Translations under genes and position numbers: made by a program
In this document: in pieces, positions 1,216-30,477 of the stretch
Layout: each line of letters opens with the position of its first letter
How positions within the stretch are numbered: the first letter of the stretch is position 1
DNA from: a virus
Taxonomy: Duplodnaviria; Heunggongvirae; Uroviricota; Caudoviricetes
Virus record (IMG/VR): IMGVR_UViG_3300045988_022899
Span: 1-31,131 of that record
Length of the DNA: 31,131 nt
Direction: 5' to 3' (one strand)
Notes under the pieces: model-generated
Databases searched by the model: none
Told to the model about the DNA's origin: nothing
Seen by the model: only the letters and a program-made list of their open reading frames with translations

Positions 1216-1233
1216 AGGCCGCAAGAGCGGCCT
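1216..1233. terminator. GC-rich hairpin between convergent genes (possible bidirectional terminator)
   Basis: AGGCCGC-AAGA-GCGGCCT stem-loop sitting between the stop at 1209 and the stop at 1232. Confidence 0.45.
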
Positions 1234-1960
1234 ATCGTTTCGCTTTGTGCTCATCCCAGCACGTTTTGCACCATGCCATTAAGCCGTCCGCATTTTGATT
1301 ATTAGGGTAAAAGCTGGTTCGTTTTCTGCGGACATTACAAATTGGGCACCACTTCATATGGCGTGTATTCTTTGGGCCATCGAGACACCTTGCACACCAT
1401 TTAGTCAATCCATCTGGATTTTTTGACGATTTCCTGAATTTTTCATATGGAAGGTTTATTCTGCATCGCAAGCACTGCTTGCTACCACTTGAAACTCTGT
1501 TAGCTGATTCTTCTTTTGGCGGCGATACAGAAGGTATTCTTGCTGGCTCTGATATTGCCTGAGGTGCTTTTTTAGATGACTGAGACGATATGTCATCACC
1601 AGGGAATCTTCCATGATATGCCGGACGCGTTGACACTCCAGGTGGAATCTCAGCTGTAAACGGCTTTGGCTGAATCAGTTGCCTCTCTTTTGCTAACTCC
1701 TGCTGTTTATAATATGTCTGGATTACCGCACTATCATAAGCAGGAGGTGCGGAAATATTAGGCGCATTACCTCCAGTTTTTTGAAACTGAGTAGAGGTGT
1801 GTTCTATCACCTGTGTACGATTAATCGTTATCTCCCCATCTTCGGTCTTTATCGTTTTGTTATGATTAACGACCGTACGATCAGAGATCTTAGTCTTGTT
1901 CTGGTTGATAACGTAAATAATCACCGCAACCACACCAACAACTATCCAGAAAACTTCCAT
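1232..1960 (-). CDS. Membrane-anchored protein with C-terminal tandem Cys-rich (zinc-ribbon-like) repeats; function unknown
   Basis: ATG at 1960 with GAGGAA RBS. N-terminal hydrophobic helix (VFWIVVGVVAVIIYVI), Pro/Ser-rich linker, then two similar CxxC...DGL..WC..C units. Confidence 0.65.
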   Translation of the reverse strand: MEVFWIVVGVVAVIIYVINQNKTKISDRTVVNHNKTIKTEDGEITINRTQVIEHTSTQFQKTGGNAPNISAPPAYDSAVIQTYYKQQELAKERQLIQPKPFTAEIPPGVSTRPAYHGRFPGDDISSQSSKKAPQAISEPARIPSVSPPKEESANRVSSGSKQCLRCRINLPYEKFRKSSKNPDGLTKWCARCLDGPKNTRHMKWCPICNVRRKRTSFYPNNQNADGLMAWCKTCWDEHKAKR

Positions 1961-2088: not shown

Positions 2089-2354
2089 ATTTACATCGCA
2101 CTCCTCTTGTGCCATAGTAATCGGGCACTGGCAAAATCCAGTGCCGGGATTGGCGTCCCGGATTACTACAGAGGCACATATGCCGCATAAGCGGTTTTTT
2201 TATGTGTAAAGCGCACCTATTCTATGGTGGGCTGTGTGGGGGCACCGAAAGGTGCGCCGGGTCCTTTGTAGCCGGTTACGCCAACCCTGCACAGTTCACC
2301 ACCAACCGATTGGCGTCGGTAGTGGTGATTAACCTAACTACAAAGGTGATCACT

Positions 2355-3041: not shown

Positions 3042-3107
3042 CGAGCGGCGGCACAGGGATGTGCCTTTAAAATAATCATTGGCGATGTGATGTAGATTCG
3101 CGTAATA

Positions 3108-3122
3108 TTACCTTAAAGGTAA
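3108..3122. promoter_or_regulatory. Operator palindrome TTACCTTAAAGGTAA
   Basis: Identical to the 1981-1995 site; 43 bp upstream of the ATG at 3165. Confidence 0.55.
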
Positions 3123-3164
3123 ACCTGTTTTTATTTTATACCTGTAACTTACCGGAGATTAAAG

Positions 3165-3491
3165 ATGACAAAACTTGGATTCGTGATGAGAGGTCCGGTA
3201 AGAAGCGGAACTCATGCAAAGCGTAGCAAGAGTCGTATTTTTACTGGTAAGGTTGTAGCACGTAAATCAGCTATTGGCTCGTTCAATAGTGAAAATGCGG
3301 CATTGCGCCATATTTTTATCAGCACAAAGCCAAGAGCATCCGCTGATGTGCATACAATGTCTATTCCTATCACAAAGAATATAAAGCGGATAAAAAAGCT
3401 CTCATCTGCAGAATCAAAAGAGATATCTTTCCGCCAGCTTAACTCATTAGAAACGCATATGAAGGAAGAGGAATTCGATGTTTTTGAGTGA
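3165..3491 (+). CDS. Small basic protein, first gene of a coupled pair (candidate antitoxin/partner)
   Basis: ATG at 3165 with GGAGA RBS; Lys/Arg-rich N-terminus and acidic C-terminal tail; its stop overlaps the downstream start by 14 nt. Confidence 0.55.
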   Translation: MTKLGFVMRGPVRSGTHAKRSKSRIFTGKVVARKSAIGSFNSENAALRHIFISTKPRASADVHTMSIPITKNIKRIKKLSSAESKEISFRQLNSLETHMKEEEFDVFE

Positions 3492-3990
3492 GTATAGCGG
3501 GAAGGTTATACCTACTGGTGAGTTTAAAACTGATGACTTTCTGATTTCGCTAAAAGATGCTTTTAAACAACACTGGCGTCATGGTCATCATCCTGATCTG
3601 GGAAAAGATACTCTTTTTGAAAGACCAGACGAAGTATTAGGCTTCCATCTCAGAAAGGTTCATGTCAATATTGGTGAATATGCATCATATTCATACTCAT
3701 GTACTGAACAGTGTTGGGATGAGTGGTCATATGGATTGATTGATGAACAAGGAAATTACAGGCCAAAACCAACCAGTAACGCATATCTCATATATGCAGT
3801 CAATGAAATAAGAGATGCAGCCTTACTAGCTTATTGGGACCCGCCCGCACACACCAAAGCTAACGCAAAAGTTTGGATGGATTCCGTATTGAATTTCACA
3901 AAATTATTTCATGAACGAACGAATACAGCCCCACTTAGTAGAAATGTTTATCCGTGGGATTATTCGTACAAATCCAAAAAGCCTGCATAG
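3478..3990 (+). CDS. YafO-like toxin-domain protein (putative ribosome-dependent mRNA interferase)
   Basis: ATG at 3478 with GGAAGAGG RBS. Motifs HPDLGKDTLF, LRKVHVNI and AALLAYWDPPAH resemble the YafO-family FGRD / HIHL / LLLAIL.P.H pattern as recalled; not database-verified. The locus is AT-rich. Confidence 0.45.
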   Translation: MFLSEYSGKVIPTGEFKTDDFLISLKDAFKQHWRHGHHPDLGKDTLFERPDEVLGFHLRKVHVNIGEYASYSYSCTEQCWDEWSYGLIDEQGNYRPKPTSNAYLIYAVNEIRDAALLAYWDPPAHTKANAKVWMDSVLNFTKLFHERTNTAPLSRNVYPWDYSYKSKKPA

Positions 3991-4071
3991 TAGTTTTTTA
4001 TGGACGAAACAAAAGTCAGTGCTACACTCATTGACGCCACATTGAGGTGGCTTATAGATGGAAATTTCACA

Positions 4072-4233
4072 ATGAAAAAAGCATTTGCTGCACTGTTCGT
4101 TTTGTTGTCTCTGGTAGCTTCAACTCAGGCCTTTGCCGGTCGTTGTCAGCACGACAGCGATACTGCCGCTGACGGCTCCCGCTGCGGTGGGCGTTCTGCG
4201 GATTCCCGCCCGGGTGGCGGTGGCATTCGTTAA
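4072..4233 (+). CDS. Small secreted peptide (signal peptide MKKAFAALFVLLSLVASTQAFA, ~31-aa Gly/Cys-containing mature part)
   Basis: ATG at 4072 inside the longer track ORF; typical Sec signal with an AFA-G cleavage context; followed by a hairpin. Confidence 0.4.
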   Translation: MKKAFAALFVLLSLVASTQAFAGRCQHDSDTAADGSRCGGRSADSRPGGGGIR

Positions 4234-4239
4234 AAACAA

Positions 4240-4255
4240 GGCCGCGAAAGCGGCC
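4240..4255. terminator. Hairpin GGCCGC-GAAA-GCGGCC; intrinsic terminator for the minus-strand virion operon
   Basis: On the minus strand the hairpin is followed by TTGTTTTTA; it sits between convergent genes. Confidence 0.6.
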
Positions 4256-4256
4256 T

Positions 4257-4268
4257 GTGACATGTCAC
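4257..4268. repeat. 12-bp perfect palindrome GTGACATGTCAC (copy 1 of 3)
   Basis: Seen in sequence; overlaps the TGA stop of the 4265-4561 gene. Confidence 0.6.
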
Positions 4269-4561
4269 GTTCCTTTTCTGAATGCTAGCCATTCGAAAAA
4301 TGATGACATTCCACCGCAGACAATAGCAAAGATGATCCCACCAAAGAAGAGAAGGCCAGCCTGCCACCACTCCCACCGCCATACATCCACAGCGCCAACC
4401 ATACCAACAATCGCTCCAACAAATGGAATATAGCTCACGATGAAAGCAATGGGGGCTGCAATTATCCAGTGCAATCCCCACCATGATTCAAGCCCAGCCA
4501 TAATTGCTGCCAACTGAAAAAGACCAACGACGATATAAACAATGAATCCTATAGCTTGCAT
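4265..4561 (-). CDS. Small polytopic membrane protein (~98 aa, three predicted TM helices); holin-like or superinfection-exclusion-like
   Basis: ATG at 4561 with AGGTGA RBS (the track ORF starts at an upstream TTG); strongly hydrophobic segments. Confidence 0.55.
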   Translation of the reverse strand: MQAIGFIVYIVVGLFQLAAIMAGLESWWGLHWIIAAPIAFIVSYIPFVGAIVGMVGAVDVWRWEWWQAGLLFFGGIIFAIVCGGMSSFFEWLAFRKGT

Positions 4562-21163: not shown

Positions 21164-21240
21164 GTGGCATTAGCTCAGTTGGACAGAGCAACCGCCTTCT
21201 AAGCGGTTTGTCGCAGGTTCGAATCCTGCATGCCACGCCA
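21164..21240 (+). tRNA. tRNA-Arg (anticodon UCU)
   Basis: Hand-folded cloverleaf: 7-bp acceptor stem GTGGCAT/ATGCCAC, anticodon stem ACCGC/GCGGT with loop CTTCTAA, T-arm GCAGG-TTCGAAT-CCTGC, 3' GCCA; resembles E. coli argU. Confidence 0.85.
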
Positions 21241-29774: not shown

Positions 29775-29837
29775 TCACCCATAAGGTAACAAAAATCAAG
29801 GATAGTTACCCATGAGGTGCATTTACCTGTTGGGTAA
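29775..29837. promoter_or_regulatory. Tripartite operator region with divergent promoters between the cro-like and repressor genes
   Basis: Three sites seen in sequence: TCACCCATAAGGTAA (29775-29789), TTACCCATGAGGTGC (29806-29820), TTACCTGTTGGGTAA (29823-29837). Confidence 0.6.
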
Positions 29838-29892: not shown

Positions 29893-30477
29893 ATGAAAAG
29901 TATCCAGGACGTCCGCAGGCAAAATCTCAACGACTTGATCGACCGTGAATTCAATGGTGTTCAGACGCGGATGGCTGAAAAACTTGGAACTCAGGCAAAT
30001 CTGGTAAACCGCTGGGCTCTTGGTAAGAAGGTTATCGGCGATCAGGTTGCGCGAAAAATTGAAGCTGCCGCCAATAAACCCCGTAACTGGCTTGATATCG
30101 ATCGCTCGCTTTCTCAGGAAGGTTTTCAGCCTGTCGGCCCAAGCGACATTGGTCAGCTGGCAGCTCACAACCTGGAACGCTGGATGAGTGAAAGCCGCGA
30201 CCTTTCAACTCAGGGAAAACTTCACCGCGCATCCGGCGTCGCCCAGGTGACAATAAGCCGCCTGTTAAACAATGAGGTCAGCGTTTCCATTTCCACCCTG
30301 GAGAATGTTGCATCTGCATTCGGGCGTCACGGATATGAACTACTGATTCATCCGCATGACCCTGCAACTATCAACTATGACCGCTCGCGCTACGCATTGT
30401 TACCTGAAACAGAGAAGGCAAAGATCGAAAGTTACATTGAATTTGTCATCAACCAGAACGAAAAAAACAAACAATAA
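29893..30477 (+). CDS. Prophage repressor, tandem HTH (XRE-type) domains, no S24 peptidase domain
   Basis: 194 aa; two HTH-like segments (QTRMAEKLGTQANLVNRW and SGVAQVTISRLLNNEVSVSISTL); no Ala-Gly/Ser-Lys autocleavage module; no recognisable SD before the ATG. Confidence 0.65.
   Translation: MKSIQDVRRQNLNDLIDREFNGVQTRMAEKLGTQANLVNRWALGKKVIGDQVARKIEAAANKPRNWLDIDRSLSQEGFQPVGPSDIGQLAAHNLERWMSESRDLSTQGKLHRASGVAQVTISRLLNNEVSVSISTLENVASAFGRHGYELLIHPHDPATINYDRSRYALLPETEKAKIESYIEFVINQNEKNKQ

Follow-up and report, generated by a model that had tools for sequence, protein, structure and literature searches.

Gene content of the cassette

The DNA analyzed, here called the window, is a stretch of 31,131 nucleotides from a tailed phage. 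Near its left end lie two co-directional genes that both open with ATG and encode proteins of 108 and 170 amino acids (Table 1). The reading frames are located where the preliminary description had placed them, and their 14-nt overlap reads ATGTTTTTGAGTGA. Translational coupling of the pair had been proposed; consistent with this, the overlap is the same in all class-A loci, and both it and the gene pair are kept in Salmonella, Serratia, and unassigned metagenome contigs. The sequence ACCGGAGAT at the Shine-Dalgarno site of the upstream gene is likewise kept in all class-A cassettes. The locus is AT-rich, as had been noted: its GC content is 39.2% (3125-3993), whereas the Bro-N gene has 49.9%, the downstream gene 53.3%, and the window as a whole 49.2%. 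Judged by the conservation of the pair, purifying selection on the 170-aa frame, and an upstream frame that stays open in diverged relatives, both ORFs are real genes and not chance ORFs.

Table 1. Features of the cassette, its flanks, and the immunity region
Feature	Position	Strand	Basis or remark
Putative sigma-70 promoter in phage backbone: -35 TTGGCG (3079-3084), 18-nt spacer, -10 TAATAT (3103-3108)	3079..3108	+	Read from sequence
Operator palindrome TTACCTT-A-AAGGTAA, overlapping the -10 end and expected transcription start	3108..3122	.	One of 10 exact copies
Swapped-in cargo cassette: leader and two genes, GC 39%	3125..3993	+	Homology breakpoints, GC
Shine-Dalgarno GGAG, 7 nt 5' of upstream-gene ATG	3154..3157	+	Read from sequence
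108-aa basic, mostly disordered protein, putative antitoxin	3165..3491	+	PHROG 5933, WP_000163643.1
Acidic C-terminal helix (residues 81-108), proposed toxin-neutralizing module	3405..3488	+	Selection, AF2, profile-profile comparison
Purine-rich Shine-Dalgarno of toxin gene (AAGGAAGAGGA), inside KEEEF codons of upstream gene	3462..3472	+	Junction sequences
Two-gene overlap, 14 nt (translational coupling)	3478..3491	+	Present in all class-A loci
170-aa long-form YafO-family protein, RelE/BECR fold, putative mRNA endonuclease toxin	3478..3990	+	PHROG 1651, WP_000479990.1
Backbone gene, small signal-peptide/membrane protein	4000..4233	+	PHROG 3117/14503
GC-rich terminator-like hairpin, end of converging transcription units	4239..4256	.	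T-run on minus strand only
Three operator copies (one exact, two near) in immunity region	29775..29837	.	Between CI-like gene and divergent small gene
HTH_3 CI-like repressor, presumed trans-acting factor for operator at 3108	29893..30477	+	Domain match, ZX5 homologue

[quoted passage not shown] An Rfam search returned no match within the cassette; a known RNA antitoxin is therefore disfavored.

The downstream gene encodes a divergent YafO-family protein

YafO acts as an mRNA interferase in a translation-dependent manner, and the yafNO genes are tied into the SOS response (PMC2814082). Few families of RelE-superfamily toxins are as small or as little studied as YafO, which counts about 1K members and lacks a solved structure (PMC11980606). 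The 170-aa protein had been likened to this family on the motifs HPDLGKD, LRKVHVNI, and ALLAYWDPPAH, all of which are found in its translation. The likeness holds for family and RelE fold but not at the level of the Pfam threshold: PF13957 (YafO_toxin) aligns over profile positions 7 to 100 of 101 with an E value of 9.5e-4, and its score of 19.7 bits lies below the gathering cutoff of 25. No NCBIfam model matched the protein. Relatives score higher; gp44 of phage TL-2011b, 33% identical, reaches 26.3 bits, above the cutoff, and 41 of 42 members of the toxin family match PF13957 (E ≤ 0.01). Since its own score falls below the cutoff and that of gp44 lies above, YafO membership rests on transitive homology, and intermediates connect the protein to canonical YafO. 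Residues F29, G36, G42, H62, Y106, and H125 are invariant in 42 sequences that include canonical YafO proteins of 132 to 134 aa. A direct hhalign comparison with K-12 YafO was full-length but weak (110 columns, E 0.0027, probability 11%).

The protein shows the RelE/BECR fold, and its gene is under strong purifying selection (pN of 0.13 to 0.23 versus pS of about 0.8). By homology and predicted fold, it is a divergent long-form YafO-family protein of the RelE/HigB type (BECR) and a putative toxin, with the invariant histidines H62 and H125 together with Y106 as candidate active-site residues. PDB sequence searches returned no match for either protein of the cassette, and a BFVD viral fold search gave none. 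The pairing had been thought possibly undescribed. For the toxin this does not stand, as RefSeq/PGAP already gives WP_000479990.1, carried by 69 complete E. coli genomes, the name 'type II toxin-antitoxin system YafO family toxin'; of the two, just the partner is labeled 'hypothetical', and literature searches on the protein accessions and PHROG identifiers found no paper.

The upstream protein has a variable middle and a conserved acidic C terminus

The upstream protein was described as a basic partner with an acidic tail, and its composition agrees: the pI is 10.6 overall, 12.0 for residues 1 to 80 (18 K/R versus 2 D/E), and 4.5 for residues 81 to 108. A strongly basic protein of pI 10.6 is atypical for an antitoxin. 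Its dissimilarity to the YefM/Phd-type antitoxin YafN was also borne out, with no match in Pfam, NCBIfam, or PDB and an hhalign probability of 0.6% against YafN. The family is tiny, comprising 14 matches in 1.84 billion representative proteins, and tblastn against 50,697 phage records found no match. Conservation is concentrated at the N terminus (MTKLGFVMRG..KRRK) and the C terminus. The middle is variable and near neutral, with pN about equal to pS; nonetheless, 12 diverged full-length relatives all keep the frame open, while only 1.9% of shuffled versions of this middle are free of stop codons. Both termini are under purifying selection. The invariant N-terminal codons show synonymous changes, and the C-terminal segment has a pN of 0.07 to 0.31 versus a pS of 0.52 to 0.65. 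An AF2 model of the protein has an overall pLDDT of 62, with moderate confidence only for a helix at residues 81 to 105 (pLDDT 73 to 86). No DNA-binding domain was found by Pfam, PDB search, or this model.

Across the phage-borne long-YafO clade, at least four partner classes occur. In partners from other long-YafO clades, the N-terminal parts are unrelated and the C-terminal 20 to 34 aa or so are homologous; tail profile-profile comparisons gave E values of 1.7e-6 for classes A and D, 1.9e-4 for A and C, and 1.1e-4 for D and C. Similarity between partner tails falls in step with toxin divergence, and canonical YafO neighbors carry PhdYeFM. The antitoxin had been called unusual, which is correct in that it is not YafN, but non-YafN partners are the rule across the phage-borne clade.

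A YafN-like tail was suggested by hhalign (SAARLEEITRR...DDDFNDF versus SSAESKEISFR...EEEFDVF). Two follow-up comparisons, one scoring tail HMMs against a background of 1,771 ORFs and the other using profiles of the tails of four YafN sequences, gave no significant result, and the likeness was therefore dropped as evidence and kept as a lead.

The 108-aa protein is probably the cognate antitoxin. It is present in every class-A relative, always 5' of the toxin gene and overlapping it; the two genes move together; the frame is open; and the conserved C-terminal helix is shared across classes. It is this helix that is conserved and homologous to the tails of other partners, the pattern that an antitoxin lacking a DNA-binding domain should show. 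The invariant motif MTKLGFVMRG..KRRK could serve as a DNA- or RNA-binding arm, in which case the partner might autoregulate the cassette.

The cassette is exchangeable cargo behind a phage operator

The locus lies between antirepressor and virion genes, as first read: a Bro-N antirepressor gene is on its left, and genes for virion proteins are on its right on the minus strand. An immI-like region with ant, C4, and IsrK adjoins it. Backbone homology to phages TL-2011b and phiv142-3 ends at 3123/3124 and restarts at 3994, and the content of the slot varies, as phiV10 is without a cassette and phiv142-3 has other genes there. Toxin and 108-aa partner have also been transferred jointly to a non-phage integrase/AlpA island, and the cassette is intact in one degraded prophage whose tail gene is disrupted by an IS element. 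From these comparisons, the cassette is exchangeable cargo that occupies a slot of variable content in a phiV10/epsilon15-like (Uetakevirus) E. coli prophage. The gene at 4000..4233, outside the swapped segment, is possibly cotranscribed with it. A role in plasmid addiction was considered and rejected; the toxin family is scarce on plasmids (8 of 72,556 records), and the Klebsiella match is again a phage-like region.

The palindrome in front of the cassette (TTACCTTAAAGGTAA at 3108-3122) had been taken for a copy of a prophage operator, and it does belong to a multicopy set, part of which is clustered between the genes for the CI-like and Cro-like proteins. TTACC-N5-GGTAA occurs in 10 exact copies in the window versus 0.01 expected from shuffles. 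The palindrome is thus a phage-wide operator and not specific to the cassette; in all related Uetakevirus-like phages compared, an operator precedes the slot cargo. The cargo breakpoint falls 1 to 2 nt past it. A consensus scan missed the putative promoter at 3079..3108 because only 8 of 12 positions match, and a -10-like hexamer likewise abuts ATTACC at two further operator copies (1981 and 2074). For the ZX5 (Uetakevirus) homologue of the CI-like protein, a repressor role was shown by overexpression (PMC9782041). The CI-like protein encoded at 29893-30477 would be the factor that binds the operator at 3108. Since the slot starts right after an immunity operator, transcription of the cassette is probably controlled by the phage repressor. 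We infer such CI-like control, and not autoregulation, from a partner that apparently has no operator-binding domain and from insertion exactly behind an operator-bearing promoter.

Proposed function and alternatives

Taken as a whole, the locus is reasonably well explained as a type II TA-like bicistron in which a YafO-like toxin and its cognate antitoxin are carried as exchangeable prophage cargo under CI control. In such a module, the 170-aa toxin would most likely cleave mRNA, probably on the ribosome, leading to translation arrest. The antitoxin would combine an N-terminal part that is basic, mainly disordered, and free of any recognizable DNA-binding fold with an acidic C-terminal helix (about residues 81 to 108) that binds and neutralizes the toxin. 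The phage CI-like repressor, and not autoregulation by the antitoxin, would govern transcription, such that the cassette is low in the lysogen and turned on after derepression, either by induction or in a fresh infection.

Expression of this kind is shared by a rather unlikely alternative, in which the 170-aa protein is a lytic-cycle nuclease for shutoff or turnover of host mRNA after derepression, and its partner is a basic timer, inhibitor, or nucleic-acid-binding cofactor instead of a labile antidote. With an immunity-repressor operator in front and the ant/C4/IsrK region adjoining, expression together with early or derepressed genes would be expected. A partner of pI 12 over residues 1 to 80 with an invariant basic N-terminal motif suits such a cofactor, and the failure of PADLOC-DB 2.0 to match either protein to any defense-system model (E ≤ 1) is also in its favor. 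A lytic function fits poorly, however, with a cassette that is optional (phiV10 lacks it, and phiv142-3 has different genes in its place), that persists intact in a prophage with an IS-disrupted tail gene, and that has passed to a non-phage island. Moreover, type II TA modules with YafO as a rule have the antitoxin gene first, overlapping that of the toxin (PMC11980606).

That cargo of this kind is AT-rich and sits in a moron-type slot, and that RelE-superfamily TA modules have been implicated in phage defense (PMC11980606), would agree with an abortive-infection or superinfection-exclusion module that is expressed in the lysogen and whose toxin would be released once an infecting phage blocks the expression of host genes. 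Repression from a lone, non-cooperative operator may be incomplete, which would permit expression in the lysogen. We nevertheless regard this explanation as quite unlikely. The operator overlaps the -10/+1 region of the sole plausible promoter, as at the ant promoters, which are necessarily silent in the lysogen; if this repression is real, the cassette is off or low there, a poor fit to lysogen-expressed abortive infection. The PADLOC result weighs against it as well, and literature searches found no experimental defense phenotype. Finally, it is highly improbable that the upstream ORF is a leader or spurious and the YafO-like gene a solitary or inactivated toxin remnant, for although the near-neutral middle, the absence of a detected domain, and the low-confidence structure model point that way, they are opposed by a frame open in all 12 diverged relatives at a 1.9% chance per sequence, by selection on the termini with synonymous changes in the N-terminal codons, by a good Shine-Dalgarno site, by a C terminus homologous to those of other partner classes, and by the strong purifying selection on the toxin gene.

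The TA-like bicistron favored here leaves current concepts in place, the cassette being a modest variant of a well-known type of system. The divergent, longer YafO clade is almost exclusively exchangeable cargo in temperate phages of Enterobacteria; its partners are of at least four uncharacterized types, some sharing only a short C-terminal module, and its cassettes lie behind phage immunity operators. If confirmed, these observations would offer a compact natural case of antitoxin modularity, in which a neutralizing helix is joined to interchangeable N-terminal parts, and of a TA module that leaves its regulation to a phage repressor, which bears on the timing of prophage cargo. There is relevance for annotation as well, because the 108-aa family is labeled 'hypothetical' in 69 of 5,426 complete E. 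coli genomes. More tentatively, and with considerable doubt on our part, the phage long-YafO systems could form a distinct TA lineage that combines a shared neutralizing helix with unrelated N-terminal parts, is controlled fully by the immunity repressor, is made only on derepression, and acts in the lysis-lysogeny transition and not in lysogen defense or classical addiction. In that event, the N-terminal basic motif of the 108-aa protein would have a function of its own, e.g., in nucleic acid binding or as a degron.

Comparison with known systems

The closest solved structures, HigB2 of Vibrio cholerae and HigB1 of M. tuberculosis, share 11 to 14% sequence identity with the 170-aa toxin. In higBA the toxin gene comes first, an order inverted relative to the present cassette, and the antitoxin families differ.

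In the three-component paaR2-paaA2-parE2 system of the cryptic prophage CP-933P, the antitoxin PaaA2 is small, for the most part disordered, and devoid of a DNA-binding domain. This system resembles the cassette in being prophage-borne and in having a toxin of the RelE/ParE superfamily. Control of its operon is ascribed to a CI-like repressor in the prophage immunity circuitry and not to the antitoxin (PMC8630535). The paaR2-paaA2-parE2 operon has its own repressor gene, whereas here the presumed repressor is the phage CI, 26 kb away, and only two genes lie within 3125-3993. Its toxin is ParE-type and that of the cassette YafO-type, and the antitoxins have no sequence relation.

More closely related are gp45-gp44 of TL-2011b and the second pair of EC.W1-9, both from the same phage group, the former in the same insertion slot and the latter with a toxin 47% identical to that described here. 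Each pair has an overlapping small ORF upstream and an immunity operator in front. Their upstream partners, of 59 and 139 aa, respectively, have N-terminal parts unrelated to the 108-aa protein; the EC.W1-9-type partner has only the C-terminal module in common with it, and the TL-2011b-type partner has no detectable similarity.

The reference for the family is YafN-YafO of K-12, with its PF13957 toxin encoded in the dinB operon. Identity between canonical YafO and the 170-aa toxin is only 20 to 25%, and K-12 YafO has 132 aa; the protein described here carries an insertion of about 25 to 30 aa (around residues 66 to 97) and is extended by about 25 aa at its C terminus. YafN is a Phd/YefM protein that autoregulates its own promoter, whereas the 108-aa partner has no detectable DNA-binding domain and no significant similarity to YafN, even in its C-terminal tail. 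The two systems are alike in that the antitoxin gene is upstream and that the toxins belong to one family, with invariant F, G, G, H, Y, and H residues, a near-full-length alignment, and the RelE-superfamily fold (PMC2814082). In both, transcription also ties in with a repressor that responds to SOS, which is LexA at dinB/yafNO in K-12 and, by our reading, one of CI type here.

Organization of the cassette

By DNA comparison, the window is an E. coli prophage of the phiV10/epsilon15-like (Uetakevirus) group, and the flanks of the cassette are 95 to 99% identical to phages HEMP4, phiv142-3, TL-2011b, EC.W1-9, and ZX5, with phiV10 a more distant relative there. As a preliminary description had proposed, the cassette consists of two genes overlapping by 14 nt. 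The purine-rich Shine-Dalgarno sequence of the second gene (AAGGAAGAGGA) sits inside the final codons of the first. Other readings of composition in that description were also confirmed: GC content is 39% in the cassette versus 50 to 53% in adjoining genes, in keeping with an AT-rich locus; the motifs quoted for the 170-aa product occur in its translation; and the 108-aa protein is basic with an acidic tail (computed pI of 10.6 overall, 12.0 for residues 1 to 80, and 4.5 for residues 81 to 108). An upstream ORF of 104 to 113 aa with the same 14-nt overlap is found at every locus carrying a 170-aa relative, further evidence that the 108-aa ORF is a real gene; the pair is translationally coupled, as proposed.

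Features of the window and of compared loci (positions in nt)
Feature	Sequence	Position	Strand	Details
108-aa partner gene	window	3165-3491	+	ATG start; GGAG 7 nt upstream
YafO-like gene	window	3478-3990	+	170 aa; ATG start
Swapped segment	window	3125-3993		
Exact TTACC-N5-GGTAA copies	window	1981, 2074, 3108, 20827, 23978, 27430, 27492, 29823, 30535, 30597		
Near-copies	window	861, 23960, 29438, 29775, 29806		
HTH_3 CI-like repressor gene	window	29893-30477		
IsrK Hfq-binding sRNA	window	2125-2201	+	Rfam, 76.8 bits
C4 antisense RNA	window	2220-2306	+	Rfam, 79.5 bits
242-aa ORF	window	1232-1960	-	PHROG 6762 (function unassigned)
Signal-peptide protein gene	window	4000-4233	+	probable start 4072; PHROG 14503 "membrane associated protein," moron category
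tRNA-Arg gene	window	21164-21240	+	anticodon TCT; within prophage
Prophage locus with identical cassette	L004 (E. coli F2_407_2_2)	3077-4305		
Overlapping pairs in two slots	L005 (phage EC.W1-9)	1533-2334; 3592-4507	-; +	
Salmonella-type island copy	L007, L008	3512-4557		cassette 3697-4513
YafO-family locus	L025 (Acinetobacter pittii plasmid pA1254_4)	1144-1971		

The 170-aa protein belongs to the YafO family

The 170-aa protein matches Pfam YafO_toxin over profile positions 7 to 100 of 101 (E = 9.5e-4), although its 19.7 bits lie below the 25-bit cut-off; NCBIfam and PADLOC yielded nothing relevant, and PHROG 1651, to which it belongs, has no assigned function. The YafO-like domain of the preliminary description thus falls short on Pfam score, but the family link stands on relatives and invariant residues, and the sub-threshold match is real. 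TL-2011b gp44, which occupies the equivalent slot, scores above the cut-off and is 33% identical to the 170-aa protein (E = 2e-27). A profile search seeded with an alignment containing K-12 YafO returned a continuum from 170-aa relatives at 66 to 82% identity (Enterobacter, Salmonella, Serratia, Raoultella) through phage-type proteins of 166 to 190 aa to canonical YafO of 132 to 134 aa. In an alignment of 42 sequences, 41 of which match PF13957 at E ≤ 0.01, F29, G36, G42, H62, Y106, and H125 are invariant, and the phage clade is set apart by an insertion of ~25 to 30 residues and a C-terminal extension. Selection on the gene is strongly purifying (pN of 0.13 to 0.23, with pS saturated at about 0.8). 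On these sequence criteria, the protein is firmly tied to the YafO family.

The toxin assignment is correct yet already known, since RefSeq/PGAP names the exact protein (WP_000479990.1) "type II toxin-antitoxin system YafO family toxin." Of 5426 complete E. coli genomes, 69 carry the cassette at ≥99% identity, and in every case it is chromosomal.

The 108-aa partner and its C-terminal module

The 108-aa protein is without a match in Pfam, NCBIfam, PADLOC, or PDB; PGAP labels it hypothetical, and its group, PHROG 5933, is functionally unassigned. It shows no similarity to YafN, the canonical Phd/YefM-type antitoxin, or to TL-2011b gp45. When 1.84 billion representative proteins were searched exhaustively with a profile, only 14 matched, about a dozen of them full-length (104 to 116 aa) and none Phd/YefM-like, in agreement with the earlier view that this partner is unlike YafN.

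Conservation within the family lies at the N-terminus (MTKLGFVMRG..R...KRRK) and over roughly the final 30 residues (ISA..S.ELSFRMLNSLEDRMKEEEFDAFE), with a hypervariable middle. The latter evolves near-neutrally (pN of 0.41 to 0.70 versus pS of 0.52 to 0.73), while purifying selection acts on the 25 C-terminal codons that lie outside the overlap (pN of 0.07 to 0.31 versus pS of 0.52 to 0.65), and synonymous changes are present in the invariant N-terminal codons. A composition-matched random middle would be stop-free with a chance of 1.9%, and the frame is open in 12 diverged full-length relatives. These patterns indicate that the ORF is a real gene. An AF2 model is of low confidence (pLDDT of 62), with residues 1 to 33 disordered and a C-terminal helix (81 to 105, pLDDT of 73 to 86) as the sole moderately confident element.

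Each long-form YafO gene examined is preceded by an ORF that overlaps it, and the partners so encoded fall into at least four classes: A, the 108-aa family; B, 59 to 60 aa (TL-2011b, L016); C, 63 aa (L014, L015); and D, 139 to 155 aa (EC.W1-9, L017). None contains a Pfam domain. Their N-terminal parts are unrelated, and relatedness is confined to the last 20 to 34 residues. When profiles of the 40 C-terminal residues were compared with one another, A aligned with D up to the very C-terminus (probability 90%, E = 1.7e-6), A with C (E = 1.9e-4), and D with C (E = 1.1e-4). When 1,771 ORFs were searched with an HMM from class A tails alone, class C and D partners ranked straight after class A; neither this HMM nor the tail comparison detected similarity to class B or YafN tails. 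Tail similarity declines in the same order as toxin identity to class A (D, 41 to 47%; C, 35 to 40%; B, 31 to 33%; canonical YafO, 20 to 25%). A toxin-tracking C-terminal module on interchangeable N-terminal parts is the pattern expected of a toxin-neutralizing segment, and it supports such a role indirectly.

An 11-kb MOBQ plasmid of A. pittii (L025) encodes a 170-aa YafO-family protein, 29% identical, preceded by a non-overlapping 73-aa ORF of yet another type, which may represent a fifth partner class outside Enterobacteria.

Operators and transcription

The palindrome TTACC-N5-GGTAA occurs in 10 exact copies in the window versus 0.01 expected. Two precede the Bro-N antirepressor gene (ant) and one the cassette, three sites (one exact, two near-copies) lie within 155 bp between the CI-like gene and a divergent small gene, and the others include sites near small terminase and replication genes; the palindrome before the cassette is therefore a prophage operator copy, as first described. 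The scattered copies suggest a dispersed repressor regulon rather than OL/OR alone, and we infer that the CI-like repressor binds them. For the related phage ZX5, overexpression experiments verified the function of the homologous repressor and of the Bro-N antirepressor; operators were not mapped there (PMC9782041).

Hexamers resembling -10 elements abut the operators at 1981 (TAACAT), 2074 (TATCAT), and 3108 (TAATAT), with TACC directly after each, and a TTGGCG -35 element lies 18 nt upstream at 3108, a geometry that suggests repression by promoter occlusion. No plus-strand terminator was found between ant and the cassette, so transcription from the ant promoters may also read through into the latter. 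Operators also precede YafO-like cassettes or slot cargo in TL-2011b, phiv142-3, EC.W1-9 (both pairs), L017, and L018.

The IsrK and C4 RNAs lie directly upstream of ant, behind operator copies 1981 and 2074; this region resembles an antirepressor control region of the P1 immI or IsrK/AnrP type, here within a Uetakevirus prophage. Between it and the tail fibre region lies the 242-aa ORF; its N-terminus is transmembrane-like, and its C-terminal part contains two Cys-rich repeats with weak matches to Stc1 and HNH/endonuclease VII-like zinc-ribbon profiles. The gene that directly follows the cassette belongs to the phage backbone and encodes a small protein with a signal peptide (MKKAFAALFVLLSLVASTQAFAG...); it is conserved in TL-2011b, phiv142-3, and EC.W1-9 and may be co-transcribed with the cassette.

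The cassette as mobile cargo

Homology to TL-2011b and phiv142-3 stops at 3123/3124 and restarts at 3994; the swapped segment thus begins 2 to 3 nt past the palindrome, and it ends 3 nt past the toxin stop. The cassette is cargo of a variable slot, which has no cargo in phiV10 and other small ORFs in phiv142-3. In EC.W1-9 this slot holds an unrelated overlapping pair (a 108-aa protein and a 167-aa DUF2335 membrane protein), and the YafO-like pair (139 and 168 aa) is found elsewhere, in a slot flanked by Bro-N and a gp19-like gene.

A Salmonella-type copy of the cassette lies inside an integrase/AlpA island (L007, L008), adjoining a Rap1a (T6SS immunity-like) gene. Over 1047 bp it matches the L006 prophage copy at 98.9% identity, and it has brought along ~185 bp of upstream DNA with the promoter and operator, so the pair travels as a unit and has moved from the phage to another mobile element. 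In the E. coli F2_407_2_2 prophage, an IS3 insertion truncates a tail gene and the cassette is 100% intact, and thus kept in a degraded prophage.

Discussion

Overall, the preliminary observation was confirmed and its interpretation largely right. The conserved coupled bicistron is inserted directly behind a multi-copy immunity operator; its second product combines a RelE/HigB fold with residues of the YafO family, and its first has a conserved helix at the C-terminus that is homologous across partners with no other relationship. The 170-aa toxin adds a new, divergent member to a known family and already carries that annotation. New are the uncharacterized antitoxin-like 108-aa family, the C-terminal module common to several partner classes, and the consistent siting of long-YafO cassettes behind phage immunity operators.

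In the most probable mechanism, the 170-aa protein would act as an mRNA endonuclease that arrests translation, and the 108-aa protein would neutralize it via the C-terminal helix. The invariant basic N-terminal motif could be a nucleic-acid-binding arm or degron. The putative antitoxin, because it seems to have no DNA-binding domain, would not autoregulate; the phage repressor would set transcription, and the pair would therefore be low in lysogens and produced on induction or infection. Its role could be defense, addiction or stabilization, or a lytic-cycle function.

Among known systems, K-12 YafO cuts translated mRNA only (PMC2814082), although doubt has been cast on its dependence on the ribosome (PMC11980606). 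Partner swapping among toxin-antitoxin toxins is a well-known theme. Canonical yafNO is wired to the SOS response via the dinB promoter (PMC2814082). The closest regulatory precedent is paaR2-paaA2-parE2, likewise a prophage toxin-antitoxin system, whose operon is governed by a CI-like repressor that forms part of the immunity circuitry of the prophage (PMC8630535).
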